Shown one piece after another: positions 4,472 to 41,866 of a DNA stretch of 64,000 bases. This DNA comes from a phage, in the sequence record PZ027503.1; one strand, 5' to 3'. Under the pieces are notes generated by a model. The model saw only the letters and a list, made by a program, of their open reading frames with translations. It was not told where the DNA came from and did no database searches. Numbering within the stretch: position 1 is the first letter of the stretch; each line of letters begins with the position of its first letter. A program made the translations under genes and the position numbers.

Positions 4472-4661
4472 AGTGTTTCTCCTCTGATTCTATTTGGATA
4501 TAACCTGTGGTTTTGCACGGGTTACACTCGTAAATTTGACCTACATCCGCCATAACATATCCTGCACCACCACAATAGGGGCAAGGCATAGGAGAACAAG
4601 GTGTGGACGTAGTGATTGTTACGACATTATCAATTTCCAACATTTTCGCCATTATTACCAT
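4455..4661 (-). CDS. small zinc-ribbon-like protein (68 aa)
   Basis: ORF track; CPYCGG...CNPC. Confidence 0.5.
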   Translation of the reverse strand: MVIMAKMLEIDNVVTITTSTPCSPMPCPYCGGAGYVMADVGQIYECNPCKTTGYIQIESEEKHYEPKR

Positions 4662-4903
4662 TCCGCTATTAACGTCAAACCAAGTGCATCGTTAAAACGC
4701 TCAACATTTGAGTATAGGTATGGAGGGGTTATTTGCTCTAAAATTTGTGCTGCTTCCACTTGGTGTTCTATGTTTTGAGAAGTTCGGGCATAAACTAAGA
4801 CACCCATTTTATTCAAAATAAAAACAGAATCAGACCCATCCAGCTTATCAACGGCTGCATACATTTTAGTCATATTTTCTCCTGGATTACCATTCAGCAA
4901 CAA
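4655..4903 (-). CDS. hypothetical protein (82 aa)
   Basis: ORF track. Confidence 0.5.
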   Translation of the reverse strand: MLLNGNPGENMTKMYAAVDKLDGSDSVFILNKMGVLVYARTSQNIEHQVEAAQILEQITPPYLYSNVERFNDALGLTLIAEW

Positions 4904-5102
4904 GACTGGGATTCATTGCAAAAGCTTTGAAAGTTGTTATGTCATGACTAACATTAAAACTAACACCTTTTACTTTCTCCAGTATTTGAACTTTTGTCTC
5001 TCCGTCCCACGGTAGGATGATAACACCATCTCCTGTGATCAACCACCAATGTTTCTCTCCATCTCGTGAATCTTTTGCTTTGTATAGAAAATTGGAACTC
5101 AT
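4887..5102 (-). CDS. hypothetical protein (71 aa)
   Basis: ORF track; GGAGG RBS. Confidence 0.5.
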   Translation of the reverse strand: MSSNFLYKAKDSRDGEKHWWLITGDGVIILPWDGETKVQILEKVKGVSFNVSHDITTFKAFAMNPSLVAEW

Positions 5103-5304
5103 TCTTCCTCCTGTTCGGTATTATTCACCTGTGAGACACAATGTAACACAAGTTTTGTGAGTTTGTCAAGGATCTAATTACATTCTATAGAAGAAGAGGG
5201 TTAATAACCATAGGAATAATCTTACTATAGGTGCAATACTAGTTAAGAGTTAGATTGATAGGTAAGACTTATCTTAAACAGATAATTGATAGGTGAATCA
5301 GCAT

Positions 5305-5361
5305 TGACTTTTTCAAAAAAATATGGTACCCTAAACATATGTTTACGAGCGATAGCGAGTA
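5305..5361 (+). promoter_or_regulatory. conserved element copy 1 (TTGACT...TACCCT...GAGCGATAGCGAGTA)
   Basis: near-identical to 42177-42234; followed by inverted-repeat hairpin 5382-5416. Confidence 0.4.
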
Positions 5362-5462
5362 GTAGATTTCTATATAATAATGTTTCATGTTACTCACGAT
5401 AGTGAGGTATGAAACGTAAGTGAAGGTAGATAAACTATGATCATCTATCTACCATCTATTAA

Positions 5463-5672
5463 TCAATATAGATCTAATGTTAGACTAACAGTTATCCAAC
5501 AAACAATAGCAGTCCATATAACAAGTAATGATCTACAAACTACATCCCATTCAAATACATTGTATGTTAACCATTCTCCCATCACAACAGAAGAACCCAA
5601 CCAACATCCAACAACAACTATAATCCAATAAAAGAATCCTACAGTAGAGTATACAGCAAAAGCTTTTAACAT
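5463..5672 (-). CDS. small membrane protein (69 aa)
   Basis: ORF track; hydrophobic; GGAGG RBS. Confidence 0.5.
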   Translation of the reverse strand: MLKAFAVYSTVGFFYWIIVVVGCWLGSSVVMGEWLTYNVFEWDVVCRSLLVIWTAIVCWITVSLTLDLY

Positions 5673-11667: not shown

Positions 11668-11905
11668 TTAGCCACCTCGTTAGTTTTTCTTGCTCTTTGT
11701 TTGCGCGTTCTAAGCTTCTGAACTTTAAACAGAGGGAACGAGAATCCCTACCCATGCACAAGCTTTCATCTAAGCTGTGCTCCCCAACCAACCAAAGAGA
11801 GTATGTTTGAACATCTAACCCATAGTTTCTGTCTTTCCATAATCTCACCCCAAGAACATCAAAAGGCGCTTCCGCGACTAAAGAAAGAAACCGATCTTTA
11901 TTCAT
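11633..11905 (-). CDS. hypothetical protein (90 aa)
   Basis: ORF track; 35-nt overlap with downstream gene. Confidence 0.45.
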   Translation of the reverse strand: MNKDRFLSLVAEAPFDVLGVRLWKDRNYGLDVQTYSLWLVGEHSLDESLCMGRDSRSLCLKFRSLERANKEQEKLTRWLNENKCKVDGVL

Positions 11906-17801: not shown

Positions 17802-18257
17802 TTACTCCTTATCAATAGTGATTGTGGCGTTTGCTACTGCAACACGAGCGTAAATCTCAACCGTCTTCGACGGATAATCCTTCTTAGCTTTTGTAGCGAC
17901 TTCAGAAGCTTTTTCAAAACTAGAACAAACATCTACACACTCTGATCCTACGATCACAACATGCCATTGTGGTTCTGCTTTACCCATTGTTTCCTCCTTT
18001 ACTTCTTCAAAATATTTAAATTCTTCGTTATCAATCAAATAAGTATACGAATTAAACCCTGGGGTAACACCTGCTGTATAGAGGGTACCATTGATATAAA
18101 ACTCAAGAACATGACCATACTTATCATCTGTATTCATAACTTTGAAAACTTCGTTTCCAATTGCTTGACAAACAGCAATATTTGCTTTGTCCTGTGTTGC
18201 CATAGCTCCTTGGTCAGCAACGCTTTTGAATTTATAAGTAAACCCTACTTTAAACAC
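17802..18257 (-). CDS. paralog family B member (GTG start)
   Basis: ORF track frame; start moved to GTG after AAGGAG RBS giving (M)FKVGFTYKF. Confidence 0.5.
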   Translation of the reverse strand: MFKVGFTYKFKSVADQGAMATQDKANIAVCQAIGNEVFKVMNTDDKYGHVLEFYINGTLYTAGVTPGFNSYTYLIDNEEFKYFEEVKEETMGKAEPQWHVVIVGSECVDVCSSFEKASEVATKAKKDYPSKTVEIYARVAVANATITIDKE

Positions 18258-18444
18258 GATGTGCTCCTTCTTGTTCAAGAGTAAAAGGAATGATTTCACC
18301 GTAGCTGTATCGCATAGCATCCACTTCTTCTTCTGCACGTTGTGCTAGTTCTAATGTTGCACAGATTTTGTAAGGGACAGTGCTGCATTGGCTCCAGCCT
18401 GGGGTATTCTTTGTTACTAAATATACAGTAGTTCCTTTATTCAT
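18250..18444 (-). CDS. hypothetical protein (64 aa)
   Basis: ORF track. Confidence 0.5.
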   Translation of the reverse strand: MNKGTTVYLVTKNTPGWSQCSTVPYKICATLELAQRAEEEVDAMRYSYGEIIPFTLEQEGAHRV

Positions 18445-18898
18445 AACTTTCTCCTCCTAGTTCATCATACCATTTCAAAGCGTCTTTTGGAAGCATACCA
18501 AAATCTTCTTTCAGTTCTTTTTCAATCTCTTCTTGCATTTCCATCAGCGTTTTCAGTTGACGGACTTTTTTGTGCATAGCCACATTCCTTTCATTAAGGT
18601 TTGTCACTACATTATTTGCACGACTCGGTGGAAATGACAAAGGTTTCACGGGAAGATAATCTTCGATATTATCTAGTGCGTTACGAAAATTATGATCCAA
18701 GAAACGCACATCTACACGATTGTAATCAGCAGCTACAACAGTGAACACTTTAAACGGCACGTTGGATAAAGTATGTTGCACACAGACAGTACCCATATTA
18801 CCTTCAATTTTACTGGTAACTTCCAGCAAACCTGTATGAGCACTAACATAATCGTGAACACATTGCACATAAGCTGCCAGTATAGTGAATTGTCTCAT
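18437..18898 (-). CDS. hypothetical protein (153 aa)
   Basis: ORF track. Confidence 0.55.
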   Translation of the reverse strand: MRQFTILAAYVQCVHDYVSAHTGLLEVTSKIEGNMGTVCVQHTLSNVPFKVFTVVAADYNRVDVRFLDHNFRNALDNIEDYLPVKPLSFPPSRANNVVTNLNERNVAMHKKVRQLKTLMEMQEEIEKELKEDFGMLPKDALKWYDELGGESYE

Positions 18899-19143
18899 TT
18901 TCTACCTCCCCATAATGCTAACATTTTATTGAAAATGGAAACGCGTCGTGCGCGAGATGCCATATCATAGTTCATTCTTTCCGTCTCTGCAAGAAATTGA
19001 TCTACTGTAATCAACGCTTCTGTTTTCTCTTTCAGAGTTTGCATATTCATCCATTCACATTCGGAGTACCAATTATCGAAATACAAACTATCAAGAAGAT
19101 CCATTGCTGCTTCGTTCTGTTGTGGTGTGATCATTGCACACAA
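18895..19143 (-). CDS. hypothetical protein (82 aa)
   Basis: ORF track. Confidence 0.5.
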   Translation of the reverse strand: MCAMITPQQNEAAMDLLDSLYFDNWYSECEWMNMQTLKEKTEALITVDQFLAETERMNYDMASRARRVSIFNKMLALWGGRK

Positions 19144-19146
19144 CCT

Positions 19147-19377
19147 TTAATAGACAATTTCATATTCGTGAGGAAAGAAAACATAATCTTCCCCTTCTCG
19201 TGCATCTATCTCGTCCCAAAACCACTCCTGCACTTCCATCATCTTCGAGAATCGCACATGAGCAAGCCCACTGTATTCCACTGTAGCTTCCAACACAAGT
19301 GGAAATTTTGCATGTGCCAATCCTTTATAACCACCATCATTCTCAATACGAATTTTCATACGTTTCATGTTATGCAT
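19147..19377 (-). CDS. hypothetical protein (76 aa)
   Basis: ORF track. Confidence 0.5.
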   Translation of the reverse strand: MHNMKRMKIRIENDGGYKGLAHAKFPLVLEATVEYSGLAHVRFSKMMEVQEWFWDEIDAREGEDYVFFPHEYEIVY

Positions 19378-19579
19378 CTTTCATATTCTCCACGAAGTGA
19401 CGAGCAACAGGATTCCCGTGGAAATATTCATTGATGAAATCGATCACACACGTTTCACTGCCTGTCACAACGGACGGTGCGAAGTTTCGGAACTGCACGA
19501 GTACACGACTTGCATTAGCAAGGGTGTGCACACGATCAGTGTTAGCTAAATACAAGGATACAGTTTTCATATTTGACAT
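19370..19579 (-). CDS. hypothetical protein (69 aa)
   Basis: ORF track. Confidence 0.5.
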   Translation of the reverse strand: MSNMKTVSLYLANTDRVHTLANASRVLVQFRNFAPSVVTGSETCVIDFINEYFHGNPVARHFVENMKDA

Positions 19580-19638
19580 TTCAATCTCCTCATTGGCTAT
19601 CTGTTATGTGCGGTATGCAAACCACTATACAGACATTT

Positions 19639-20022
19639 TTATTCAATGCAAGCATTATTTGCATCTTCAATGCGATCTTTCACCCATTGAAGACGTAACG
19701 TGTTGGTATGACACGCCAAGTTTATACACTCTGAAAGGTAATCCATGCAATCTGCATTGAACGGAAGATTGTAGTCCAGCCCTGCACATGTAAATTGTTT
19801 CCTCATTTCATATTTCAAACGGTCTAACAAACTATCCCGCCATCTTCTATCTTCTTCTCTAGTTGTCTCACCAACAAAATCATCTACATAATCTACCAGA
19901 CAACCACATAAGCCACTCGTTGTGCGATTCATTGCAGGATAGTTGGCAATCCATGCTTTATAGAAGCGAAGCAATGTTGCACTACTCAACGGAATATTAT
20001 TTGTCATTTTTCTCTCCTTCAT
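19639..20022 (-). CDS. paralog family A member
   Basis: ORF track; FYKAWI, GLC, RLQWVKDRI motifs. Confidence 0.55.
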   Translation of the reverse strand: MKERKMTNNIPLSSATLLRFYKAWIANYPAMNRTTSGLCGCLVDYVDDFVGETTREEDRRWRDSLLDRLKYEMRKQFTCAGLDYNLPFNADCMDYLSECINLACHTNTLRLQWVKDRIEDANNACIE

Positions 20023-22906: not shown

Positions 22907-22969
22907 GTGGGCTTGCTGTATTGCTCGCCCTACGTGATAAATAATAATGTAAGCGTGATCCGGTGTCAA
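22907..22969 (-). promoter_or_regulatory. promoter plus degenerate 5' stem-loop cassette
   Basis: minus-strand TTGACA-N17-TATTAT then CCCTACGTGATA block. Confidence 0.45.
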
Positions 22970-23144
22970 TAGGTAGCATTGTAAAGATTTGATAGTTTAT
23001 TCCTTTGATGTTTTGTTGTTTGATAGATGTTAGCTATCAATATATGGCGGGGTCGTCCGGTGATTATCTTCCCCTGCTCCCAGGTGCCGCCCGTTCAATA
23101 AGTATAACAAAAAACAGGACAAAAACAAGCCCTGTTTATTTATC

Positions 23145-23264
23145 TTAAAACCAGTTGCCAACCGTTTCCAATAGGTCACTGACTACCAGGACAACATTGA
23201 TCAGCACATATTTAATCAGGAAGGGGATTAGCGCCAGCGCCGCTACTATGATCCCCATTGTCAT
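23145..23264 (-). CDS. membrane micro-protein (39 aa)
   Basis: hand-translated MTMGIIVAALALIPFLIKYVLINVVLVV...; GAGAAAGG RBS. Confidence 0.35.
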   Translation of the reverse strand: MTMGIIVAALALIPFLIKYVLINVVLVVSDLLETVGNWF

Positions 23265-23275
23265 GATTACCTTTC

Positions 23276-23566
23276 TCATTGTTGGCGGTTTACGTAAGCT
23301 TTACCGTTTACGGTCATCTGTATGGCTTCAAGGTCTGGATCTTCCTTAAGGTCGCGTGCAAGCTCACCGCAGCGGATACCCTCGAATCCGTAGTATTCTG
23401 TTTCCCCGTCCTTAAAAGTTTTAGCGGCAAGGCATAGGCGATAATTAACGCCGATCCGGTTTACCGCGTTGATATCGGTTAACGCGATGGATTCAGGCAA
23501 ATCATTAGCCATTACAGGCGCGTTAATACCAACAACCAGGGCAACTACTGCGATCATCTTTTTCAT
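23276..23566 (-). CDS. secreted protein with signal peptide (96 aa)
   Basis: ORF track; MKKMIAVVALVVGINAPVMA; hairpin 23597-23612 upstream. Confidence 0.6.
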   Translation of the reverse strand: MKKMIAVVALVVGINAPVMANDLPESIALTDINAVNRIGVNYRLCLAAKTFKDGETEYYGFEGIRCGELARDLKEDPDLEAIQMTVNGKAYVNRQQ

Positions 23567-23621
23567 GCTTTCTAGCCTCTTCCTATTGCGTTTAATGGGG
23601 CGTTACCGCCCCGCTTATGGT

Positions 23622-23858
23622 TTATTGATTGATGTTATAATGAAAATTATTTTCTTCAATAGCTTTTAAAATAAAAGCCGTGATCGCTTTCGTGTCTACT
23701 TGTTCGAACGTATCGGAATAGCACCAATAATGATCATCCCCTACTTTCGGCGGGTAAACCTGGACAAGGAGATCGCCACCTGGTTGATCTATAAGCTCAA
23801 CATGTAAGCCGGATGATTCAGCGGTTTTAACGGCGTTTAATACTGTTGCAATACTCAT
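23622..23858 (-). CDS. hypothetical protein (78 aa)
   Basis: ORF track; hairpin 23879-23894 upstream of RBS. Confidence 0.55.
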   Translation of the reverse strand: MSIATVLNAVKTAESSGLHVELIDQPGGDLLVQVYPPKVGDDHYWCYSDTFEQVDTKAITAFILKAIEENNFHYNINQ

Positions 23859-23902
23859 AATCTTTTCCTTTCTGATGTGGGGCGTTGCCGCCCCTTTGTT
23901 GA

Positions 23903-24202
23903 TTAGATCGCTGTTTCCAGTAGTTCGGCTAACGTCTTACCGCCTGATAGTTGGTCTAACGTTTGCTCTTCTGGCAAGAAATTAGCTGATATTAATCCGA
24001 CTTGATTCCCTTTGTGCCAATTGGCTTGACGGATGATTCCATCCTTTAAAGATTTTACCGCCATTGTGCAACCGTCGCCAAATGATTCATTTTTATGATC
24101 CATTACTTCATAAGCGCCCAGCTTGCTGCTGTTAGGCACCATCAACGCGAATACATCACCAACAACCAGTTTTTCTACGGTAACAATAGCGATAGTTTCC
24201 AT
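23903..24202 (-). CDS. hypothetical protein (99 aa)
   Basis: ORF track. Confidence 0.55.
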   Translation of the reverse strand: METIAIVTVEKLVVGDVFALMVPNSSKLGAYEVMDHKNESFGDGCTMAVKSLKDGIIRQANWHKGNQVGLISANFLPEEQTLDQLSGGKTLAELLETAI

Positions 24203-24219
24203 TTTACTTTCCTCATTAT

Positions 24220-24278
24220 CGGCGGCACCATTGCCGCCCTACGCATTAAATATAAGTTATCTAAGAGATTAGATCAAG
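24220..24278 (-). promoter_or_regulatory. promoter plus 5' stem-loop cassette
   Basis: hairpin GGCGGCACCATTGCCGCC 24221-24238; minus-strand TTGATC-N17-TATATT. Confidence 0.55.
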
Positions 24279-24280
24279 GA

Positions 24281-24472
24281 TTATTTTGTAAAGATTACAG
24301 CTTCATCAAAATTTTCAACATAGTAAGCAAGCTCCTCATTTGCTGCAACCATTCCTAAAAGTTGGCTATAAGATAAACCTTTGATCCCTTCCTCGTTGTT
24401 TAATGCTTCGATGATTTCATCAACGGGCGCAAAAAACATGTTATTCGATTCCAGGTAGGAGATGGTTTTCAT
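24281..24472 (-). CDS. hypothetical protein (63 aa)
   Basis: ORF track. Confidence 0.5.
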   Translation of the reverse strand: MKTISYLESNNMFFAPVDEIIEALNNEEGIKGLSYSQLLGMVAANEELAYYVENFDEAVIFTK

Positions 24473-24492
24473 AATGTTTACCTTTTTCGGGG

Positions 24493-24549
24493 AGCGGCAC
24501 CATTGCCGCCCTACGTGGTAAATATTAGCACACTGGCGATCTGTGTCAA
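24493..24549 (-). promoter_or_regulatory. promoter plus 5' stem-loop cassette
   Basis: hairpin GCGGCACCATTGCCGC 24494-24509; TTGACA-N16-TAATAT on minus strand. Confidence 0.6.
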
Positions 24550-24555
24550 TACTTT

Positions 24556-24942
24556 TTATTCAATATAAATCAAATTATCTTCACCAATGTAAGCCGACAC
24601 GTTCGGCATAAACTTAGCTGCATTGGTTAGGCGGTTCGCCGTGTTAGTGGTGTATATTTCAGGGCGATCCCAAAAGCCTACGCCGTGACTGTTACGGGTA
24701 AAATGTAAATCATTCCCGATCTGGTTGGCTGTTGCGCCGTCGCTCATTGCCTCAGAGATAGCGGCAAGATTAGCATTAATAAAGGCTGTTACATCCTGGG
24801 CGATCCGTTGATCCGCACTAGGAGAAAAATCATAATCGTCTAAGTTATCAATAAAATTACCTTCATAATCCCTTGCTGATTCAGCAAAAATAAAGGCTTC
24901 TTTATAGCCGTTGATGATTTCAATAATGATTTCTGTTTTCAT
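24556..24942 (-). CDS. hypothetical protein (128 aa)
   Basis: ORF track. Confidence 0.55.
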   Translation of the reverse strand: MKTEIIIEIINGYKEAFIFAESARDYEGNFIDNLDDYDFSPSADQRIAQDVTAFINANLAAISEAMSDGATANQIGNDLHFTRNSHGVGFWDRPEIYTTNTANRLTNAAKFMPNVSAYIGEDNLIYIE

Positions 24943-25154
24943 GCTGTACGCTCGACAATAATAATAGTTTGCGGGATCTCGTTTTCTACTACTAACAAGG
25001 CTTTTTTCTGTGTGATAGATATTTTAACACGTTGTAAAGTAGCGGTAAAATCTTTCATTTCATTATGCGCGGATTTAGTACAATGCCAGATCTCAGGTTT
25101 ACCAACTTGCAAGCCGCGTAAAAATTCCGTTTTACCTGTCTTATTCGTGATCAT
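24939..25154 (-). CDS. hypothetical protein (71 aa)
   Basis: ORF track frame; start at ATG 25154 with AAGGTG RBS. Confidence 0.5.
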   Translation of the reverse strand: MITNKTGKTEFLRGLQVGKPEIWHCTKSAHNEMKDFTATLQRVKISITQKKALLVVENEIPQTIIIVERTA

Positions 25155-25164
25155 TTGTTTCACC

Positions 25165-25269
25165 TTAACCGATACCGTGGGAAGATAGGATCATATTAGC
25201 CATAGTTGCAACTACTCCAACCGATAACGCCAGGCCAACCACTGCAACCGTGAAAATTTTCTCTAACAT
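25165..25269 (-). CDS. membrane micro-protein (34 aa)
   Basis: hand-translated MLEKIFTVAVVGLALSVGVVATMANMILSSHGIG; follows cassette. Confidence 0.35.
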   Translation of the reverse strand: MLEKIFTVAVVGLALSVGVVATMANMILSSHGIG

Positions 25270-25286
25270 GATTCTACCCTCATTAA

Positions 25287-25349
25287 TGGGCGTTGCACCA
25301 TTGCCCCGCCCTACGTAATACACTTTACCAGATAACAAACCATTGTCAA
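25287..25349 (-). promoter_or_regulatory. promoter plus 5' stem-loop cassette (variant)
   Basis: hairpin 25288-25311; TTGACA at 25343-25349 (minus). Confidence 0.5.
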
Positions 25350-25407
25350 GGTTTATTTACTACATCTTTTAAGCTGTATTTTTAAAATACAGCTTTCAGG
25401 CTGTCAA

Positions 25408-25578
25408 TTACTCTTCATCGTCGCCGTTATAGTATTCAATGCCGTTTTCATCGGTTACGGTGATGTTAACGCCACCGATAGCAACACGATCACGGGCAAA
25501 CGTCATAGCTTCGTTTAAATCTTCAGACCAAAAAATATTGTGACCTTTGCGCGATACATAAAACATAGTTGGGATCAT
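25408..25578 (-). CDS. hypothetical protein (56 aa)
   Basis: ORF track frame; start at internal ATG after cassette and AGAAGAGAAA RBS. Confidence 0.5.
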   Translation of the reverse strand: MIPTMFYVSRKGHNIFWSEDLNEAMTFARDRVAIGGVNITVTDENGIEYYNGDDEE

Positions 25579-25600
25579 GATTTGTTTCTCTTCTGTTGTG

Positions 25601-25662
25601 AGCGGTGGACCATTCCGCCGCTCTATGTAATAAACTTTACTACGTTGTTTGCCTACTGTCAA
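25601..25662 (-). promoter_or_regulatory. promoter plus 5' stem-loop cassette
   Basis: hairpin GCGGTGGACCATTCCGCCGC; TTGACA 25657-25662 (minus). Confidence 0.55.
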
Positions 25663-25663
25663 A

Positions 25664-25948
25664 TTATTTTTTAATGTTTTGCCCTACAAAATTGATCACT
25701 TCCTTAAGCTGTCTCTCTGTCATGATCGTACCTGGTAACTCTTCTTTAATTTCTTCCGGTAAATAAATATTACCGCGCCAGGTTAACAAACAACCGTTTT
25801 GATCTTCGCAGATAGAATAAGAAAACATCCACTCGCAATCATTCTCAAGCTCCCAAAAACACAAAAAGTCTTCTTTCCCTAAGTTTTCAACGGTTAAACA
25901 TAATCCGCGACGTGCTGCATAATTAGTTAGGCTTTTTGTGATTTTCAT
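25664..25948 (-). CDS. hypothetical protein (94 aa)
   Basis: ORF track frame; start at internal ATG downstream of hairpin. Confidence 0.55.
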   Translation of the reverse strand: MKITKSLTNYAARRGLCLTVENLGKEDFLCFWELENDCEWMFSYSICEDQNGCLLTWRGNIYLPEEIKEELPGTIMTERQLKEVINFVGQNIKK

Positions 25949-25970
25949 GATTTTTCTCTCTTCTGTTGTG

Positions 25971-26027
25971 AGCGGCACCATTGCCGCCCTACAAGATACA
26001 TATTATCAGACTACGCGGACTTGTCAA
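25971..26027 (-). promoter_or_regulatory. promoter plus 5' stem-loop cassette
   Basis: hairpin GCGGCACCATTGCCGC 25972-25987; TTGACA 26021-26027 (minus). Confidence 0.6.
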
Positions 26028-26028
26028 A

Positions 26029-26139
26029 CTATTTTTTCTTTTTCTTTGCTTCCAACCGTCTAAGGTTACGGCTTGACTTATTGCGCAAGGCGCTTAGATC
26101 GTCGTACCCTTTCCATGCTTGCATATCTTTCGGATTCAT
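26029..26139 (-). CDS. small basic protein (36 aa)
   Basis: ORF track frame; start at internal ATG with GGGGGATAAC RBS; K-rich C-terminus. Confidence 0.35.
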   Translation of the reverse strand: MNPKDMQAWKGYDDLSALRNKSSRNLRRLEAKKKKK

Positions 26140-26149
26140 GTTATCCCCC

Positions 26150-26428
26150 TTAACGATTATAAACATTATGGATGGCTTCAAAGGCAAGATGACCATAAGC
26201 CGCCAAATCGGGATTGATCCAAGCGTTATCCAACATCGTTTCAAGGACTGTGGAATCATCGTATAAAGCATCATAGAAATCTGCACGGATGATCGTTTCA
26301 ATGTCGTCCGGTGTTAGTTTGTCGTTCAACTTGCACACTGTTTCAACGTCAACACCAATTTTCCAATTTTGTAAATTAGTGGTTAACATTGTTTTCATTT
26401 CTTCGGTTGTTAATTTAACGATGGTCAT
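26150..26428 (-). CDS. hypothetical protein (92 aa)
   Basis: ORF track; cassette upstream. Confidence 0.55.
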   Translation of the reverse strand: MTIVKLTTEEMKTMLTTNLQNWKIGVDVETVCKLNDKLTPDDIETIIRADFYDALYDDSTVLETMLDNAWINPDLAAYGHLAFEAIHNVYNR

Positions 26429-26451
26429 GATTTTTTCTCTCTTCTGTTAGG

Positions 26452-26507
26452 CGGGGCGCTTGTCGCCCCTATGTGATACATCTTATCAGGTTGATTCAGC
26501 TTGTCAA
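26452..26507 (-). promoter_or_regulatory. promoter plus 5' stem-loop cassette
   Basis: hairpin GGGGCGCTTGTCGCCCC; TTGACA-N16-TAAGAT (minus). Confidence 0.6.
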
Positions 26508-26508
26508 A

Positions 26509-26670
26509 CTATTTGTTAGCCGGATTATATGCCAGGACCGCGCCGCTTGCTTTCACGCTTTCCGCTTCATAGTTGCGCAGATCGTTTTCTGTAAGATTGA
26601 GCGCGATCACTTCCTCAATCTCAACACCAGCGGCAATGGCGATCTCTTTGATAATGTCTGCTGTTTTCAT
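26509..26670 (-). CDS. hypothetical protein (53 aa)
   Basis: ORF track frame; start at internal ATG (MKTADIIKEI). Confidence 0.5.
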   Translation of the reverse strand: MKTADIIKEIAIAAGVEIEEVIALNLTENDLRNYEAESVKASGAVLAYNPANK

Positions 26671-26680
26671 GGTATGTACC

Positions 26681-26800
26681 TTATAAGATGATTGATAAGA
26701 TAGTGACAACGAAAGCGATTATACTGATGGCAAATGTCATCTTTTTACCTTCGGATACTGCCGGATTTTCTACCGTGTATTCTACTGTGTACTTGCTCAT
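26681..26800 (-). CDS. membrane-anchored micro-protein (39 aa)
   Basis: hand-translated MSKYTVEYTVENPAVSEGKKMTFAISIIAFVVTILSIIL. Confidence 0.35.
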   Translation of the reverse strand: MSKYTVEYTVENPAVSEGKKMTFAISIIAFVVTILSIIL

Positions 26801-26822
26801 CGTGTAATCCTCTCGTTTGCTT

Positions 26823-26880
26823 TGGGAACTATTCCCGCCGCCCTATGAATTAAATATACACTATCTCAAAATGATTGCAA
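26823..26880 (-). promoter_or_regulatory. promoter plus 5' stem-loop cassette (short stem)
   Basis: hairpin GGGAACTATTCCC; TTGCAA at 26875-26880 (minus). Confidence 0.5.
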
Positions 26881-26898
26881 GCCTTTTTCTAAATTATT

Positions 26899-27183
26899 TT
26901 ATGCAGTAAACAAACCATCATTTACAACGGCGGCGATGATCTCCCGTGCCATTGATTCAGGGAAAGGGGCGCTATAGTCCTGGCTTGTCTCATCGGTATC
27001 GGTGATCCAATGATAAGCTAACGAGTAAAAGCCTTTACTAACTGTTTTCAGTGAGATGATGATCACTCGGTCAAGCTTATTGGTGAATGTTGCCGTTAAT
27101 GTGTCACCCTCCTGCGTCATGTTGGACAAGTAAGCGGGATCATTAATCAGGGAAAACATTAGCACGGTGTTAGCTTTACTCAT
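26899..27183 (-). CDS. hypothetical protein (94 aa)
   Basis: ORF track frame; start at internal ATG with GAGGATG RBS. Confidence 0.55.
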   Translation of the reverse strand: MSKANTVLMFSLINDPAYLSNMTQEGDTLTATFTNKLDRVIIISLKTVSKGFYSLAYHWITDTDETSQDYSAPFPESMAREIIAAVVNDGLFTA

Positions 27184-27203
27184 GATTGCATCCTCAAAGG
27201 GGG

Positions 27204-27260
27204 CGCGGCACCATTGCCGCCCTACACGATAACTATAACACAATATAAAACAGGATCAAC
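27204..27260 (-). promoter_or_regulatory. promoter plus 5' stem-loop cassette
   Basis: hairpin GCGGCACCATTGCCGC 27205-27220; TTGATC-N16-TATAGT (minus). Confidence 0.55.
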
Positions 27261-27462
27261 CTTTATTTTTCCACGGTGTCAGCTTGTTAATCATTGGTGA
27301 TAAATAGCGTTTACCAACGTAAAACAGCACGCCAACTGATGCAACGGCGGCGACCTCATGCATAGCCGACGGGAAACGGGTATCATAATAAGATCCAATA
27401 ATAGCAATAGCGGCAACGGCTGCAACGTCGATAATGATTTTTTCTTGTTTTGCGGTGATCAT
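27256..27462 (-). CDS. small membrane protein (68 aa)
   Basis: ORF track; hydrophobic. Confidence 0.5.
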   Translation of the reverse strand: MITAKQEKIIIDVAAVAAIAIIGSYYDTRFPSAMHEVAAVASVGVLFYVGKRYLSPMINKLTPWKNKG

Positions 27463-27481
27463 AATATTTACCTTTTTGTAT

Positions 27482-27541
27482 GGTGGGGAACTATTCCCCG
27501 CCTGATGTAATACAGTTTAACAGGTCCGGTTATGGTGTCAA
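27482..27541 (-). promoter_or_regulatory. promoter plus 5' stem-loop cassette
   Basis: hairpin GGTGGGGAACTATTCCCCGCC; TTGACA 27536-27541 (minus). Confidence 0.55.
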
Positions 27542-27547
27542 CCACTT

Positions 27548-27733
27548 TTAAAGATATTTTATGTTAATGATGTTTTCAGGTTTTACCTTGTTATGATGTG
27601 CATCAACATAGATCAAACCATCGTCAGAAAAGCCCAGGATCACGCCCTGCGCAATAAAACCGTATTCGTCACGGTAACGCACGGCTATTTTTAATGTTGC
27701 GCTGTAGGCTGTTTTAAGCTCGTTTAAAGTCAT
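27548..27733 (-). CDS. hypothetical protein (61 aa)
   Basis: ORF track; GAGGAT RBS. Confidence 0.5.
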   Translation of the reverse strand: MTLNELKTAYSATLKIAVRYRDEYGFIAQGVILGFSDDGLIYVDAHHNKVKPENIINIKYL

Positions 27734-27753
27734 TTTTGTTTATCCTCTACATG

Positions 27754-27774
27754 TAAAAAGAAAGGGCGCTTGGT
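27754..27774 (-). terminator. intra-island terminator
   Basis: AAGGGCGCTTGGTGCGCCCTT hairpin followed by CTTTTTAC on minus strand. Confidence 0.45.
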
Positions 27775-27788
27775 GCGCCCTTGTTATG

Positions 27789-27935
27789 TTAATCCTCTAA
27801 ATCCATCCAATTATATTTGTCACTCTTCCCGCGCTTTGTTTTATTGCGCTTGTCGCCTTTGCGGATCACTTCCTCGTTCCAGGCCTTGCGGATCTTGGAA
27901 GATTGAATTTTTTCTGCGCGATTAGATGTATTCAT
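27789..27935 (-). CDS. small basic protein (48 aa)
   Basis: hand-translated MNTSNRAEKIQSSKIRKAWNEEVIRKGDKRNKTKRGKSDKYNWMDLED; AGAGGAAACA RBS. Confidence 0.4.
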   Translation of the reverse strand: MNTSNRAEKIQSSKIRKAWNEEVIRKGDKRNKTKRGKSDKYNWMDLED

Positions 27936-27954
27936 TTTGTTTCCTCTTTATATG

Positions 27955-28008
27955 AGCGGCACTATTGCCGCTATATTGTTAATTTAAACTGTTTTGTAAA
28001 ATTGTCAA
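27955..28008 (-). promoter_or_regulatory. promoter plus 5' stem-loop cassette
   Basis: hairpin GCGGCACTATTGCCGC 27956-27971; TTGACA 28002-28008 (minus). Confidence 0.55.
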
Positions 28009-28014
28009 GGTTTA

Positions 28015-28368
28015 TCATTCATAAGAGCAAGCAAGGATCACGCCTGCAATATAAAGCCAATAATTTTCCCTTTCTCGTTGGATTTTATCATCGCTGCTAT
28101 TCTCTTTAATGTATCCCCAGGATGTTAACAACCGATCTACTTCCCAATACTCGAAAGCTATATTAATATTTGACGGTAAACCTTGTAACCATGATGCTAT
28201 TGCTCTGATAATGTTATGATCGTAACGTTTTTGATTATCGGTGTACCAATATTCAGATTTAAAACAGCGCATCAATTCCGCGATCTTCTCTTTCTCTTCT
28301 GTGATGCCATACTCGCTATAATCAATTGAGGCCAGAATATAAAGTTTAATTGCATTTTGTGCTTTCAT
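28015..28368 (-). CDS. hypothetical protein (117 aa)
   Basis: ORF track. Confidence 0.55.
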   Translation of the reverse strand: MKAQNAIKLYILASIDYSEYGITEEKEKIAELMRCFKSEYWYTDNQKRYDHNIIRAIASWLQGLPSNINIAFEYWEVDRLLTSWGYIKENSSDDKIQRERENYWLYIAGVILACSYE

Positions 28369-28387
28369 GGTGTCTCTCTTCTGTTGT

Positions 28388-28445
28388 TGGCGGCACCATT
28401 GCCGCCCTATGTGTTACATCTTACCGGATTTTTAAAACTTGTCAA
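28388..28445 (-). promoter_or_regulatory. promoter plus 5' stem-loop cassette
   Basis: hairpin GGCGGCACCATTGCCGCC 28389-28406; TTGACA 28439-28445 (minus). Confidence 0.6.
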
Positions 28446-28667
28446 TCATTTTTCTACTATCATTTGATACCCTGTTTCCAGGTTAGTAAACACCGTGATC
28501 CCGTCCTGGCGTTCACTCATTAGCATACAAGGCGCTAACATCCTTTCTACTGCCTTGCACTCATTGTAAACGGCGGTTATGTCTCCTGCGGCCTTGTCTT
28601 CTGTGGTGAATGTATCGTTTACGTAAACCTGACCAGCGACAACGGCGACAATAGCGAAAGTGATCAT
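28446..28667 (-). CDS. hypothetical protein (73 aa)
   Basis: ORF track; MITFA N-terminus shared with next small ORF. Confidence 0.5.
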   Translation of the reverse strand: MITFAIVAVVAGQVYVNDTFTTEDKAAGDITAVYNECKAVERMLAPCMLMSERQDGITVFTNLETGYQMIVEK

Positions 28668-28700
28668 GGTGTTTCCTTGTTAGTAGTGGTTTCTCTTCTC

Positions 28701-28726
28701 TATAGCGCCCATTGTAAGGCGCTATA
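28701..28726 (-). promoter_or_regulatory. variant 5' stem-loop (TATAGCGCC/GGCGCTATA)
   Basis: inverted repeat immediately upstream of RBS of 28446-28667. Confidence 0.4.
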
Positions 28727-28734
28727 ACGAAAAG

Positions 28735-28908
28735 TCAACGATTATTTTTAAGGCTTAAAGTACCTAACTTGTCAGCATGACGCAGACCAGGGAAGATCCA
28801 TTTGCCTGATTCATCTTTTACAGGTGCTTTAAACGTAGCGCCCAGGTTGGCGGCGTTAATTTTACGGGCAACGTTGCGAGCGGCTTCACGGGTAGCGAAA
28901 GTGATCAT
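28735..28908 (-). CDS. small protein (57 aa)
   Basis: hand-translated MITFATREAARNVARKINAANLGATFKAPVKDESGKWIFPGL... Confidence 0.4.
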   Translation of the reverse strand: MITFATREAARNVARKINAANLGATFKAPVKDESGKWIFPGLRHADKLGTLSLKNNR

Positions 28909-28932
28909 GGTGTTTTCCTCTTCTCTTTGTTA

Positions 28933-28994
28933 GGCGGTGGACCATTCCGCCGCCTTGATGTAATACAGTTTACTTTATTTTTGCAGTATTGCAA
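28933..28994 (-). promoter_or_regulatory. promoter plus 5' stem-loop cassette
   Basis: hairpin GGCGGTGGACCATTCCGCCGCC; TTGCAA 28989-28994 (minus). Confidence 0.45.
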
Positions 28995-29000
28995 GCGGTT

Positions 29001-29213
29001 TTATGAAATAATCGTCAAAGTAAAATTGTAATCACCTGATTGATACAATACTTTATCACCGAACGTTCCAACACGTTTAACATTGCAATATATACCCATA
29101 ACACTTTTTACATCTTTGATATTCTTCACGCCTGTAATATCTTTATTAAAATGATCGTGATCAGAAAATAAAACTTGACTTGCATTTTTTAACAGTGTGC
29201 GGATATTAGCCAT
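29001..29213 (-). CDS. hypothetical protein (70 aa)
   Basis: ORF track. Confidence 0.5.
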   Translation of the reverse strand: MANIRTLLKNASQVLFSDHDHFNKDITGVKNIKDVKSVMGIYCNVKRVGTFGDKVLYQSGDYNFTLTIIS

Positions 29214-29237
29214 CGTAATAATCTCTCTTCTGTTGTG

Positions 29238-29294
29238 AGCGGCACCATTGCCGCCCTACGTAATATAGTTTACTCTTTTTCTTTCCCGTGTCAA
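29238..29294 (-). promoter_or_regulatory. promoter plus 5' stem-loop cassette
   Basis: hairpin GCGGCACCATTGCCGC 29239-29254; TTGACA 29289-29294 (minus). Confidence 0.6.
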
Positions 29295-29303
29295 CAATCT
29301 TTT

Positions 29304-29531
29304 TCAGATTAATTCATCCAGGCATAACAGGCGATCAACGTTGAGATCGGTTAGGCTGATGGTTGGCACCTGGTAGGATTCGATGTACTCGACGCTTGCA
29401 TATTCCCCAAAATTAGCAATAGCCCACTTATTCAAGATCTCACATACATCATTAATCTTTTTGTTTGTTACGACTGCAATAACCTGGGAAGTGCCAACGG
29501 TGCCGGATACGCGAACAATATTGATAGCCAT
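29304..29531 (-). CDS. hypothetical protein (75 aa)
   Basis: ORF track. Confidence 0.5.
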   Translation of the reverse strand: MAINIVRVSGTVGTSQVIAVVTNKKINDVCEILNKWAIANFGEYASVEYIESYQVPTISLTDLNVDRLLCLDELI

Positions 29532-29551
29532 AATCTTTAATCTCTCTGTTT

Positions 29552-29612
29552 TGGCGGGAAACCACTTCCCGCCCTATGTGATACATCTTACACTAATTTT
29601 AAACGTTGTCAA
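29552..29612 (-). promoter_or_regulatory. promoter plus 5' stem-loop cassette
   Basis: hairpin GGCGGGAAACCACTTCCCGCC; TTGACA-N-TAAGAT (minus). Confidence 0.6.
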
Positions 29613-29621
29613 CTGTTTTTA

Positions 29622-29861
29622 TTACATTCCAACCATCGCGGCACGGATCGCAGTAGTGCTATATTTGAAACCGTCTGGCGTTTTATCTTGTCCAGTTTGT
29701 TCCAGAAAAAGCATCATATCCCGCGCCGCATCATTACGATTAGCATTAGCGTTAATAAAATCTTGGGCCAACCGGTATAACGATTCATCGTTATTAATCC
29801 AAAGGCTTACATTCCAATGAGTTTTGTTTTTGTGACCGTTGTACATTTTAGATTTAGCCAT
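29622..29861 (-). CDS. hypothetical protein (79 aa)
   Basis: ORF track. Confidence 0.5.
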   Translation of the reverse strand: MAKSKMYNGHKNKTHWNVSLWINNDESLYRLAQDFINANANRNDAARDMMLFLEQTGQDKTPDGFKYSTTAIRAAMVGM

Positions 29862-29884
29862 GATTTTTCTCTCTTTTTCAGTGA

Positions 29885-29944
29885 GGCGGGAAGTGTTCCC
29901 GCTCTCTATGTAATACAGTTTACTCTTTTTATTCGTGCTGTCAA
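29885..29944 (-). promoter_or_regulatory. promoter plus 5' stem-loop cassette
   Basis: hairpin GCGGGAAGTGTTCCCGC 29886-29902; TTGACA 29939-29944 (minus). Confidence 0.55.
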
Positions 29945-29950
29945 TGCTTT

Positions 29951-30316
29951 TTATAAATCTTTTTTACGTTTTACATCGCTCGCATGACTGTATACAGTGA
30001 TCCCATTGTCACGGCAAAAACGGGAAAGGTAGGCATAATTTGAAAACTCTTTACCTTCCAGGTTGATAACCTTGCTAAACTCTTCTAGGGCAACGGTATC
30101 AAAATGATCACCATAGCCATATTGAAACGGAACGTTAACCACCTCGATCAGTTTACCGCCGATCTCAACGTCAACCATTAAAGAGAAATATGTGTTACCG
30201 TAGGACCGTTGAAACCAGCGACGGGCGCTAATGTGCACCGCTTCAATGCTGGATAATTCAATTTTAGCCGTGTTAGCCAGGGTAGCATAAGCGGAAACAT
30301 TGATATTAATAGCCAT
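29951..30316 (-). CDS. hypothetical protein (121 aa)
   Basis: ORF track. Confidence 0.55.
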   Translation of the reverse strand: MAININVSAYATLANTAKIELSSIEAVHISARRWFQRSYGNTYFSLMVDVEIGGKLIEVVNVPFQYGYGDHFDTVALEEFSKVINLEGKEFSNYAYLSRFCRDNGITVYSHASDVKRKKDL

Positions 30317-30341
30317 GATGATAATCTCTCTTTTTGGTTAG

Positions 30342-30394
30342 TGGGAAGTATTCCCGATAAAAGTTATTATGCTTATACTATCACTCATTGTCAA
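30342..30394 (-). promoter_or_regulatory. promoter plus 5' stem-loop cassette (short stem)
   Basis: hairpin GGGAAGTATTCCC; TTGACA 30389-30394 (minus). Confidence 0.5.
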
Positions 30395-30413
30395 TAGTAT
30401 AAGACTAAAACTT

Positions 30414-30593
30414 TTAACGATAATCGTTATAGGCTTTATTGACCTGGCGAATGTAACATTCGAAAGCAAGATCAATGTATTCGTATTCACGCACATAATC
30501 ACCATAGGTCACTACATACATTTTTAAAGTTTCCTCATAAGCCAGGAGGATCGAATCTAAACCTATAATCTCAGTTTTTGCAATGATAGCCAT
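30414..30593 (-). CDS. small protein (59 aa)
   Basis: hand-translated MAIIAKTEIIGLDSILLAYEETLKMYVVTYGDYVREYEYIDLAFECYIRQVNKAYNDYR. Confidence 0.4.
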   Translation of the reverse strand: MAIIAKTEIIGLDSILLAYEETLKMYVVTYGDYVREYEYIDLAFECYIRQVNKAYNDYR

Positions 30594-30612
30594 GATGTTA
30601 ACCTTTTATTGT

Positions 30613-30670
30613 TGGCGGCACCATTGCCGCCCTACGTGATAAACTATACCAGAAGTTTAAACAGTGTCAA
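30613..30670 (-). promoter_or_regulatory. promoter plus 5' stem-loop cassette
   Basis: hairpin GGCGGCACCATTGCCGCC 30614-30631; TTGACA 30665-30670 (minus). Confidence 0.6.
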
Positions 30671-30676
30671 CCGTTT

Positions 30677-31039
30677 TTATTCGTAAATTTTACCGCTTTC
30701 GGCCCATACCATAACGCGGCGCATACTATCCCAAGTGTTTTGATCCAGGTTTAAGCCGTGCAACTCTTCGGTACTTCCCAGACCAGGTACCGCTTTGTTG
30801 TAAGTCGCATATAAGCGCCCTTGATACTCATACGCCAGAGTAAGATCCGTTTGAATCATCTTTTTAAGCATAGCATTAAGCATCATATTAGCGGCATGTT
30901 GATCACGTTTTAGCGGTAACATATCAATAAGGGCGCGATAAGCTGAAACATGGATATCAACCGTTTCACGTGGTAAATTTTTCATATCATCGCGGAAAGA
31001 TACCAGATTAAATATGATAGTATTGATTTGCTTGCTCAT
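30677..31039 (-). CDS. hypothetical protein (120 aa)
   Basis: ORF track. Confidence 0.55.
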   Translation of the reverse strand: MSKQINTIIFNLVSFRDDMKNLPRETVDIHVSAYRALIDMLPLKRDQHAANMMLNAMLKKMIQTDLTLAYEYQGRLYATYNKAVPGLGSTEELHGLNLDQNTWDSMRRVMVWAESGKIYE

Positions 31040-31059
31040 TGTGTTACCCTTTTTTGTTT

Positions 31060-31121
31060 TGGCGGGGAAGTATTCCGCCGCCCTATGTGATACATCTTAT
31101 CAGATTAAAAAACGTTGTCAA
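31060..31121 (-). promoter_or_regulatory. promoter plus 5' stem-loop cassette
   Basis: hairpin GGCGGGGAAGTATTCCGCCGCC; TTGACA-N-TAAGAT (minus). Confidence 0.6.
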
Positions 31122-31129
31122 GAATATTT

Positions 31130-31225
31130 TTAGAAAATAATATCCGCTACTACAACCCAAAATGGAACGGCTAGAATGATAGCGTTAATCGTTCCAACCG
31201 TCAAGCTATTTTCTTTATTAATCAT
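31130..31225 (-). CDS. membrane micro-protein (31 aa)
   Basis: hand-translated MINKENSLTVGTINAIILAVPFWVVVADIIF; sits between two cassettes. Confidence 0.3.
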   Translation of the reverse strand: MINKENSLTVGTINAIILAVPFWVVVADIIF

Positions 31226-31253
31226 TGTAAGCCTCTTGCATAATTTCACTATG

Positions 31254-31311
31254 AGCGGCACCATTGCCGCCCTACGTGGTAAATATTATGCCAGTGGCGG
31301 CGATATGTCAA
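31254..31311 (-). promoter_or_regulatory. promoter plus 5' stem-loop cassette
   Basis: hairpin GCGGCACCATTGCCGC 31255-31270; TTGACA 31306-31311 (minus). Confidence 0.6.
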
Positions 31312-31865
31312 AGACTATTTTCAAAGTTTTCTAGTGCGATCCTTTTTTCTTCCTCTGTCGGCTGATAATCAGGAAAAGCATCAACACACAACAACGGCGG
31401 GATCTCTTCGTACTCTTCCTCTTCCGTTGTCTCCTCGTCTTCCTCCTGGGCTATGGCTGCAATTTTGGCTAATTTTCTTTCGGCTTGAATCAATTTACCA
31501 TCAAGTACGTTTTTTGCCATGTTGTAAGCGGTCCAGGTGATGCGCTTACTTTCCAACGCTTCATCAAGCGCCGCTATCTTGCTGGGGTATTCATCCAGGA
31601 CACGAAAAGCCGGATCAATTTTGTACAAAGGATTATCTTTCGCGCCGTCGCTTGCATCTTCCGCACTGGATAAATCAGCGTTACCATTTGCCAGCCAGCC
31701 AGGGCGCACATAACGCGCTTTTACGTTGCCGTTACTACGTGCTAATCTGTTACCTATTTGCTCACCGCTATATCCCGTGGATTCATCGATAAGATGATCG
31801 GGAATGATGCGCGGATCATCTGCTTCATGTTTTACCCAAGACTGGATCACATATTCGCGGCCCAT
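31308..31865 (-). CDS. hypothetical protein with acidic C-terminus (185 aa)
   Basis: ORF track frame; start at ATG 31865 with AAGGTGG RBS. Confidence 0.6.
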   Translation of the reverse strand: MGREYVIQSWVKHEADDPRIIPDHLIDESTGYSGEQIGNRLARSNGNVKARYVRPGWLANGNADLSSAEDASDGAKDNPLYKIDPAFRVLDEYPSKIAALDEALESKRITWTAYNMAKNVLDGKLIQAERKLAKIAAIAQEEDEETTEEEEYEEIPPLLCVDAFPDYQPTEEEKRIALENFENSL

Positions 31866-31866
31866 A

Positions 31867-32124: not shown

Positions 32125-32141
32125 TCTACCACCTTACAAAT

Positions 32142-32197
32142 AGCGGGAACTATTCCCGCTTTATGTAACATATTAACAAATTATTCGTTAATGTCAA
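32142..32197 (-). promoter_or_regulatory. promoter plus 5' stem-loop cassette
   Basis: hairpin AGCGGGAACTATTCCCGCT; TTGACA 32192-32197 (minus). Confidence 0.55.
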
Positions 32198-32200
32198 GCC

Positions 32201-41864: not shown

Positions 41865-41866
41865 CA

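Follow-up and report, generated by a model that had tools for sequence, protein, structure and literature searches.

A Promoter-Like Cassette With a Putative 5'-Hairpin in Three Syntenic Copies in Stephanstirmvirinae Phages

An element that occurs twice in a 64-kb stretch of phage DNA (64,000 nucleotides of record PZ027503.1, referred to as the window) is on balance probably a cassette of a promoter and a 5'-hairpin, which marks three co-regulated or stabilised transcripts. The window belongs to a Phapecoctavirus genome; these E. coli myophages of ~150 kb are part of the subfamily Stephanstirmvirinae, and a 1.2-kb probe around copy 1 shows 98-99% identity to dozens of Phapecoctavirus phages. 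The conservation of the sequence, the co-variation of paired positions, the strand specificity of the pairing and the synteny of the copies are direct observations. A promoter followed by a leader hairpin is a familiar kind of arrangement; unusual are the invariant apex of the hairpin, the occurrence in three syntenic copies and the palindrome over the predicted start site. The literature searched on promoters or transcriptomes of Phapecoctavirus, phi92 or rV5 yielded neither a description of the element nor a transcriptome of these phages.

Stephanstirmvirinae (phAPEC8- and phi92-like phages) are widely isolated for therapy, and their gene regulation is essentially unstudied. The cassette offers a distinct promoter class, a likely antisense RNA in a long early operon and a conserved hairpin that is expected to bind or protect something. 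If the hairpin serves as a tag for a phage factor or marks an origin, it would represent a new regulatory or replication module; if it is only a 5' stabiliser, the promoter and leader would still make up a compact and portable part, of which natural sequence variants exist.

Anatomy and Distribution of the Element

Both copies in the window lie on the + strand and share the anatomy TTGACT, 17 nt, TGnTACCCT, AA, 12 variable nt, C and GAGCGATAGCGAG-TA, in which the 17-nt spacer consists of a T-tract followed by an A-tract. Their parts, of which the hexamers and their spacing are conserved, are:

5304-5309, + strand: -35 hexamer TTGACT of copy 1
5310-5326, + strand: spacer of copy 1, with the TG at 5324-5325
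5327-5332, + strand: -10 hexamer TACCCT of copy 1
5347-5361, + strand: 15-mer of copy 1, GAGCGATAGCGAGTA
42177-42182, + strand: -35 hexamer TTGACT of copy 2, followed by the 17-nt spacer with TGC
42200-42205, + strand: -10 hexamer TACCCT of copy 2
42220-42234, + strand: 15-mer of copy 2

The sequence-only reading had located an element twice on the + strand, and both copies were recovered with coordinates right within one base, the -35 of copy 1 beginning at 5304 instead of 5305. The two promoter strings, given there as near-identical, are so except for a T/A shift between the copies (TTTTTC-A7 vs TTTTTTC-A6), and the gap of 10 nt that had been put before the 15-mer measures 12 nt from TACCCTAA. 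In the window, the promoter 31-mer has two sites at <=2 mismatches, with 0.00 expected from shuffles, and the 15-mer has two exact sites and no further one at <=3 mismatches on either strand. A covariance model of the hairpin likewise singles out the two copies (36.5 and 34.4 bits), the next-best site of the window reaching 10 bits. The proposed search for further copies thus returned two in the window and, in whole genomes of relatives, a third and more diverged copy elsewhere. Copy 1, copy 2 and this third copy are termed type I, type II and type III, and all three types are present in four lineages.

The element was found by BLAST in ~130 phage records, all of them Stephanstirmvirinae (Phapecoctavirus, Justusliebigvirus/phi92-like phages, and Klebsiella and Citrobacter relatives), and pattern scans of IMG/VR and metagenomes extended this set to ~40 distinct variants from four lineages. 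Its conservation in related genomes, on which the earlier reading had partly staked its case, is therefore clear and crosses genera. Over all searches, the element was limited to Stephanstirmvirinae phages and related metagenomic contigs, and bacterial genomes held no promoter-bearing copy except for phage contamination in assemblies. A tRNA/tmRNA scan of the window found none, and Rfam gave nothing at gathering score for the whole window and chance-level matches only (E > 1) in a permissive search around both copies.

The Predicted Promoter

The -35, the TG and the -10 are constant together with their spacing in the ~40 variants from four lineages, while the sequence of the spacer drifts. The -35 hexamer is TTGACT in both window copies (5/6 positions of TTGACA) and TTGACT, TTGACA, TTGATT or TTTACT across the variants. 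The spacer comprises 17 nt in the window copies and 17-18 nt in other variants, with the TG invariantly placed one base before TACCCT, and positions 6/7 after the -10 read as pyrimidine/purine in nearly all variants. Accordingly, the suggestion that the element is a promoter is well supported by comparison across genera, and both copies appear to fit sigma-70 promoters of the extended -10 class with predicted starts near 5339 and 42212. The -10 keeps T1, A2 and T6 and matches TATAAT at just 3/6 positions, for which reason a consensus promoter scan misses copy 1. The weak -10 and its absence from the standard scan speak against the cassette model and leave promoter function a prediction.

Two other ways of placing the -10 were rejected. 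Taking TATGCT as the hexamer would leave a spacer of 14 nt, and its A is lost in some variants; an opposite-strand promoter from the symmetric TACCCTA is without a usable -35 or TG. A hairpin between the T-tract and the A-tract of the spacer was dismissed as well, as the AC of the -35 is invariant and its putative partner is GT, CA or TA, with no co-variation. The TACCCTA itself (5327-5333 and 42200-42206) is symmetric in the sense of TAnnnTA and reads TAGGGTA on the opposite strand. In some relatives, a divergent gene starts just 20-54 nt beyond the -35, so that this -10 might conceivably also support weak initiation in the divergent direction.

The window also holds ~19 near-identical early-promoter cassettes at 22969-32557 on the - strand and one more at 55051 on the + strand. 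Their layout is TTGACA, 16/17 nt, TAAGAT (or close), gtatcACATAG, a GC-rich 5' hairpin of the GGGCGGCAATGGTGCCGCC type and a ribosome-binding site. Each of the ~19 precedes a tiny ORF, and the array recalls the hyperplastic PeSL (promoter-early stem-loop) regions of T4-type phages.

The Putative Hairpin S2

The comparison of variants supports the view that the 15-mer forms the apex of a putative hairpin, S2, just behind the predicted start:

5343-5362, + strand: S2 of copy 1, lower stem TTAC/GTAG around the apex C-GA-GC-GATA-GC-GA-G
42219-42234, + strand: S2 apex of copy 2 (C + GAGCGATAGCGAG + TA), without a complementary lower stem

The invariant core comprises a C:G pair, tandem G.A/A.G, G:C and C:G, closing a loop G-N(N)-A. 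The loop occurs as GAUA, GAA, GAAA, GAAU, GCA or GGGA; the nucleotides in its middle vary within a constant surround, thus the middle is free and the frame is fixed. Below the apex, the lower stem varies in sequence and retains its pairing. Pair 9:24, the innermost of the flanks, is C:G in 16, A:U in 6 and unpaired in 2 of 24 variants, with no one-sided change, and pair 7:26, two steps further out, is formed in 23 of the 24 (U.G 10, U:A 9, C:G 3, G.U 1). Altogether, 77% of the cells are paired, compared to a shuffle mean of 69% (none of 500 shuffles reaches 77%) and to 31-52% for slid partners. An earlier co-variation test on 22 variants gave the same result. As the wobble pairs fit the + strand alone, the structure is one of the RNA or of the non-template strand of the DNA. 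In most variants, the minimum free energy (MFE) fold of the first ~35 nt includes S2, which begins at +1 to +5 of the predicted RNA, an extended stem beginning at the predicted +1 or +2 in several of them. The base of S2 lies ~11 nt past the -10, the offset at which the ~19 other early promoters of the window have their GC-rich 5' hairpin. A hammerhead-like core (GA-stem-GAA) was considered for the apex and rejected, because neither the flanking CUGANGA nor the A14 position is conserved.

The earlier reading had alternatively proposed a protein-binding site. A co-varying hairpin apex on the transcribed-sense strand fits the 15-mer better than a linear site does, and we would give little credence to an operator in duplex DNA, in which a phage repressor or activator would bind tandem AGCGA half-sites at +8..+21 and the hairpin potential would be incidental. 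Such an operator could draw on the two AGCGA half-sites of the motif, on the position of the invariant 12-13-mer inside the polymerase footprint and on conserved 9-mers that type I copies additionally have upstream. Nevertheless, it leaves the compensatory changes of the flanks unexplained; the spacing of the half-sites varies by 0-2 nt, exactly as expected for a loop, and the same apex appears with other complementary flanks in unrelated bacterial repeats.

Least probable of all is that the element is an ordinary promoter, duplicated or recombined recently like the cassettes of T4-type phages, with a functionless 15-mer. These PeSL cassettes, reportedly described by Arbiol and colleagues in 2010, are said to be numerous and to carry stem-loops that act as terminators. 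In both systems, a short modular promoter of the strong early type is combined with a stem-loop among small early genes, and the downstream genes differ between relatives. Many promoter and hairpin cassettes in the phage and the variation of the genes downstream of type II by genus would agree with duplication. In the element described here, however, the hairpin lies inside the predicted transcript, and the copies are three at syntenic positions. Membership in the PeSL class was rejected on the grounds that no U-tract follows S2, no + strand terminator is called and only three copies exist per genome. Moreover, the apex is invariant across genera in which flanks, spacers and neighbouring genes have diverged. 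The variable parts have diverged between the copies with compensation, which suggests that the copies are old paralogues under selection and not recent ones; given the cross-genus conservation, a recent duplication is unlikely.

Copy 1 and Its Predicted Antisense RNA

Copy 1 is situated within a 38-kb array of small leftward genes, which begins at a divergent junction near 40.4 kb, and is oriented against the genes of this array. The surrounding gap, for which 330 bp had been given, is non-coding and extends over ~360 bp (5103-5462). In MN850571.1, a close relative, the early array has stretches of 0.5-1.7 kb without annotated genes (18218-19894, 24031-24529 and 28039-28846), which correspond to the leftward array of the window. 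The features around copy 1 are:

5254-5263 and 5285-5294, + strand: two direct ATTGATAGGT repeats just upstream of the -35
5382-5416, + strand: H3, a two-tier hairpin GTTTCAT..CTCAC-GATA-GTGAG..ATGAAAC
5425-5453, + strand: H5, a hairpin GGTAGATA..TATCTACC, 10 nt past the stop codon of the convergent gene and conserved in three of the other sequences compared (L005, L016 and L110)
5463-5672, - strand: convergent gene of a 69-aa membrane protein (phrog_24123)
4887-5102, - strand: gene X, 71 aa (LYKAKD...NPSLVAEW, phrog_16110), divergently upstream of every type I copy

The synteny of type I is constant, with the divergent gene X (LYKAxD...NPxLIAEW) on one side and a convergent gene on the other. 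A promoter-like site that belongs to gene X lies at 5169-5140 (- strand). The gene also has a tandem paralogue: the adjacent genes 4655-4903 and 4887-5102 (both - strand) end in ...L(T/S)L(I/V)AEW. All neighbouring genes fall into PHROGs without known function, and no Pfam family was found for them. The direct repeats that had been noted at 5254 and 5285 are present as described and may serve type I copies specifically, as a site for a regulator or an UP-like element; they belong to a class of 9-mers (ATTGATAGG, ATTAATCGG or ATTAATAGG, or the complement CCTATCAA) that is equally placed upstream of the type I copies of other genera.

An antisense or non-coding RNA, as proposed for the element by the earlier reading, fits copy 1. 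No + strand gene follows, the predicted promoter faces the leftward operon, and the predicted RNA (5339-5456) would fold into S2, H3 and H5 with z = -3.1 vs shuffled sequence. The hairpin at 5382-5416 is real, though not perfect as had been thought, since an asymmetric internal loop parts the 7-bp outer stem from the 5-bp inner one. Its loop and 3' arm (CGATAGTGAGGTA) are similar to the 15-mer, and its outer stem shows a compensated change in phiWec179-like phages (ATTGC/GCAAT). In other genera, further hairpins that seem compensated when read by eye follow the S2 of type I, and RNAalifold on a MAFFT alignment of type I recovered S2 alone. H5 may mark where the copy-1 RNA ends, may serve the leftward gene as its 3' hairpin, or may do both. 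A search for a U-tract terminator of the copy-1 RNA found none, nor was any terminator called on the + strand, which counts against the cassette model. Small ORFs within the RNA were rejected as coding, as their peptides are not conserved between genera, and pairing in trans of the type I RNA with the type II leader was no better than with shuffled sequence in three genomes.

The transcript of copy 1 would run antisense into the 3' end of the 69-aa membrane-protein gene. A phage cis-antisense RNA of this kind is the OOP RNA of lambda. Judged from its sequence, copy 1 would resemble it as a short non-coding transcript with its own promoter, directed against an early operon and overlapping a gene at its 3' end. 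The two have no sequence relation, and here promoter and hairpin would additionally serve an mRNA and a tRNA unit.

Copies of Types II and III

Copy 2 lies in the rightward array, 1.7 kb to the right of the divergent junction near 40.4 kb, and its -35 shares bases with the TGA that ends the upstream gene (41824-42180). The region behind it reads as follows:

42235-42547, + strand: ~115 nt of leader past the motif, a ribosome-binding site AGGAG at ~42337-42341 and a 65-aa gene at 42350-42547 (phrog_25113)

The proposed promoter of a small RNA therefore does not hold for copy 2, where a leader of ~135 nt and a ribosome-binding site lead into the gene 42350-42547; by its sequence, copy 2 is best described as the predicted promoter and leader of a rightward mRNA. 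Its leader is a weak point of the cassette model, as it lacks the lower stem of S2, and its folding is not significant (z = -1.5). The MFE fold pairs the motif with the downstream CTCTATCG/TGTTCGA instead. The type II leaders of most other genera contain a second co-varying hairpin with tandem G.A, followed by a ribosome-binding site and a gene, and these downstream genes differ between genera.

The third copy lies outside the window and was found with the covariance model on a complete relative:

11764-11829 of MN850571.1, - strand: type III

Its sequence is TTGACT-18-TACCCT-AG...GAGCGCAGCGAG with a perfect TTAAC/GTTAA stem, and it is conserved in 72 records. Type III is located at a divergent junction beside genes of DNA metabolism. 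Behind it come ~230 nt that are very AT-rich and contain AGTAC(G/A)GAGTAC repeats, then a second promoter, and after this a small gene and the tRNA array. In a Klebsiella phage, types II and III lie on opposite strands, and the orientation is thus not constant. The setting of type III looks origin-like.

The settings of types I and III also bear on an antitermination signal in the nascent RNA, similar to nut of lambda or put of HK022, in which the hairpin, with or without a phage protein, would modify RNA polymerase close to the promoter. We judge such a signal to be improbable, and the same grade applies to its presumed benefit, i.e., read-through of Rho-dependent and intrinsic stops, which would be of use to an untranslated tRNA array or an antisense RNA. 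Type I is untranslated and type III heads a largely untranslated tRNA unit; in addition, the copies are few per genome, each right behind a promoter, and an invariant apex on a variable stem is typical for hairpins that bind a protein or the polymerase. Still, there is neither a boxA-like sequence nor a two-hairpin put architecture beyond S2, the one conserved hairpin common to all types, and the nut/put class was rejected on this basis. Furthermore, Rfam gave no match, no N- or Q-like gene was recognised, and the variable loop (GAUA, GAA, GCA, GGGA, GAAU) is more in keeping with a constraint on structure than with a specific contact.

The Palindrome at the Predicted Start Site

Between the -10 and S2, a second symmetric structure, S1, is centred on the predicted start:

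5333-5344, + strand: S1 of copy 1, palindrome AAACATATGTTT, centred on the predicted start A5339 (7th nt after the -10)
42207-42218, + strand: S1 of copy 2, ACCC-CGAA-GGGT, centred on the predicted start G42212 (p = 0.04 vs shuffles)

S1 of copy 2 co-varies with AACC..GGTT and ACCT..AGGT in its orthologues. Most variants have palindromes of differing sequence at this position, made of Watson-Crick pairs only and centred 6-8 nt after the -10, e.g., AAACATATGTTT, ACCC-CGAA-GGGT, AACC-N4-GGTT, ACCT-GAA-AGGT and AAAC-ACGAA-GTTT. A Fisher combination of ~11 lineages, worked by hand and with lineages that are not fully independent, gives p of roughly 0.002. With the predicted start site in its middle, S1 is unable to form in the primary transcript, which counts against the cassette model. 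S1 lies likewise outside a replication-origin model, and is hence accounted for by neither of the two.

A Model of the Cassette

According to the favoured model of promoter and 5'-hairpin, sigma-70 holoenzyme would recognise TTGACT, the spacer of 17-18 nt, the extended -10 TGn and the weak -10 TACCCT, and host RNA polymerase would start at the purine 7 nt past the -10, near 5339 and 42212. The cassette would then extend from the promoter over the initial 25-30 nt of the RNA. The nascent RNA would fold into the 5'-proximal S2 with its invariant apex and a lower stem varied in sequence yet paired, and S2 might shield the 5' end from RNase E and RppH, as stem-loops at the 5' terminus are known to do. 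The invariance of the apex suggests that S2 probably acts, in addition, as a tag that directs a few transcripts to a shared factor or fate. The RNA of type I would be non-coding, structured, at least ~115 nt long and antisense into the leftward early operon upstream of gene X, and could limit or process read-through into gene X and ~14 distal genes by pairing or polymerase collision. Type II would act as the leader of a rightward mRNA, and type III would head a unit that contains tRNAs. From the comparative evidence, we infer the transcription, its start site, the stabilisation and any partner of the cassette transcripts.

Extended -10 sigma-70 promoters and stabilising stem-loops at the 5' terminus are known, the latter from the 5' UTR hairpins of the ompA type. 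The cassette shares with these a predicted promoter of TGn and TAnnnT with a good -35 and a hairpin a few nt from the predicted 5' end, a layout shared also by other early promoters of this phage. In contrast to the ompA type, its apex is invariant in sequence (tandem G.A, GN(N)A loop), three copies exist per genome and a palindrome lies over the start site.

A Possible Alternative Role at the DNA Level

The apex of S2 also matches a known mini-hairpin of DNA, GCGNAGC/GCGNNAGC, which is far stabler as DNA and occurs near phage priming and transcription start sites (Hirao; PMC13037366). The S2 cores GCGATAGC, GCGAAGC, GCGCAGC, GCGGGAGC and GCGAAAGC match the consensus exactly, and the form GCGN(N)AGC is fitted by 23 of 24 variants, with a varying loop N and fixed G and A; the sole exception is the type II copy of Tr1 (GCGAATGC). 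For the cassette model, an apex that is much stabler as DNA than as RNA is unfavourable (PMC13037366). The known cases are in single-stranded DNA, e.g., at the primase origins of G4/St-1, at RSF1010 ssiA and at N4 promoters (PMC13037366), whereas S2 adds the tandem G.A, a lower stem with wobble pairs and a position in a predicted leader. A hairpin promoter of the N4 type was rejected, as it needs a fully paired stem of 5-7 bp with a 3-nt loop, together with a gene for a giant virion RNA polymerase, and the stem here has tandem G.A and loops of 3-4 nt. No RNA polymerase gene is annotated in ~145 of the 151.5 kb of the nepoznato genome.

The DNA stability of the mini-hairpin, a purine-rich leader (the first 30 nt of the transcript have 69% purine, compared to 50% further downstream and 58% for other early promoters) and the origin-like setting of type III together lend some credence to a role at the DNA level. 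The element could be a transcription-primed origin or priming site, at which the promoter would open the duplex and the purine-rich RNA would remain paired to the template in an R-loop, whose displaced non-template strand would fold into the very stable GCGNAGC mini-hairpin; flanked by tandem G.A, the latter would resist SSB and mark a loading site for primase and helicase. We regard this as possible, with a clear lean towards disbelief, and are slightly more doubtful about the specific version in which all three cassettes are such origins, with the leader RNA on the template and the G.A-clamped GCGNAGC loading the primase/helicase of the phage. If true, a large virulent coliphage would possess an R-loop origin module that is defined by its sequence. 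The phage has its own primase/helicase, type I has no coding function, and type III would fire from the divergent junction into ~230 nt of very AT-rich repeat DNA.

Promoter-dependent origins are known from T4 oriF(uvsY) and oriG and from the primary origin of T7, and the primase sites of the G4 type are comparable. As in T4 and T7, the message is perhaps unneeded, several copies are present per genome and type III faces an AT-rich tract. Unlike in those systems, no consistent AT-rich unwinding element lies directly downstream: type III alone among the three types has a strongly AT-rich tract, and +25..+75 has 63% AT compared to 61% for the window. Against an origin stand also the many T.G pairs of the lower stem, which are unfavourable in DNA and acceptable in RNA, as well as the conserved leader, the ribosome-binding site and the gene behind type II. 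GC skew was rejected as an origin marker, because it merely mirrors gene orientation.

Occurrence of the Apex Outside the Cassette

The 12/13-nt apex is also found in a dispersed bacterial repeat, GTCATTCC-GAGCGAAGCGAG-GAATC, in eight MAG contigs. This repeat has no Rfam match, occurs in Bacteroidota, Acidobacteria, Chloroflexi and others, and shows compensated stems (ATTGC/GCAAT, ATTTC/GAAAT and CCTC/GAGG). Besides, an 84-kb IMG/VR contig of an unrelated, GC-richer phage (L014, 5851-5882, - strand) contains TGTGCTACCCTAA, 8 nt and GAGCGAAAGCGAG, with a perfect 6-bp lower stem CCTATC/GATAGG and a T-rich tail after it. Here, either the same hairpin has independently been put to use as a terminator, or the -10 part matches by chance.
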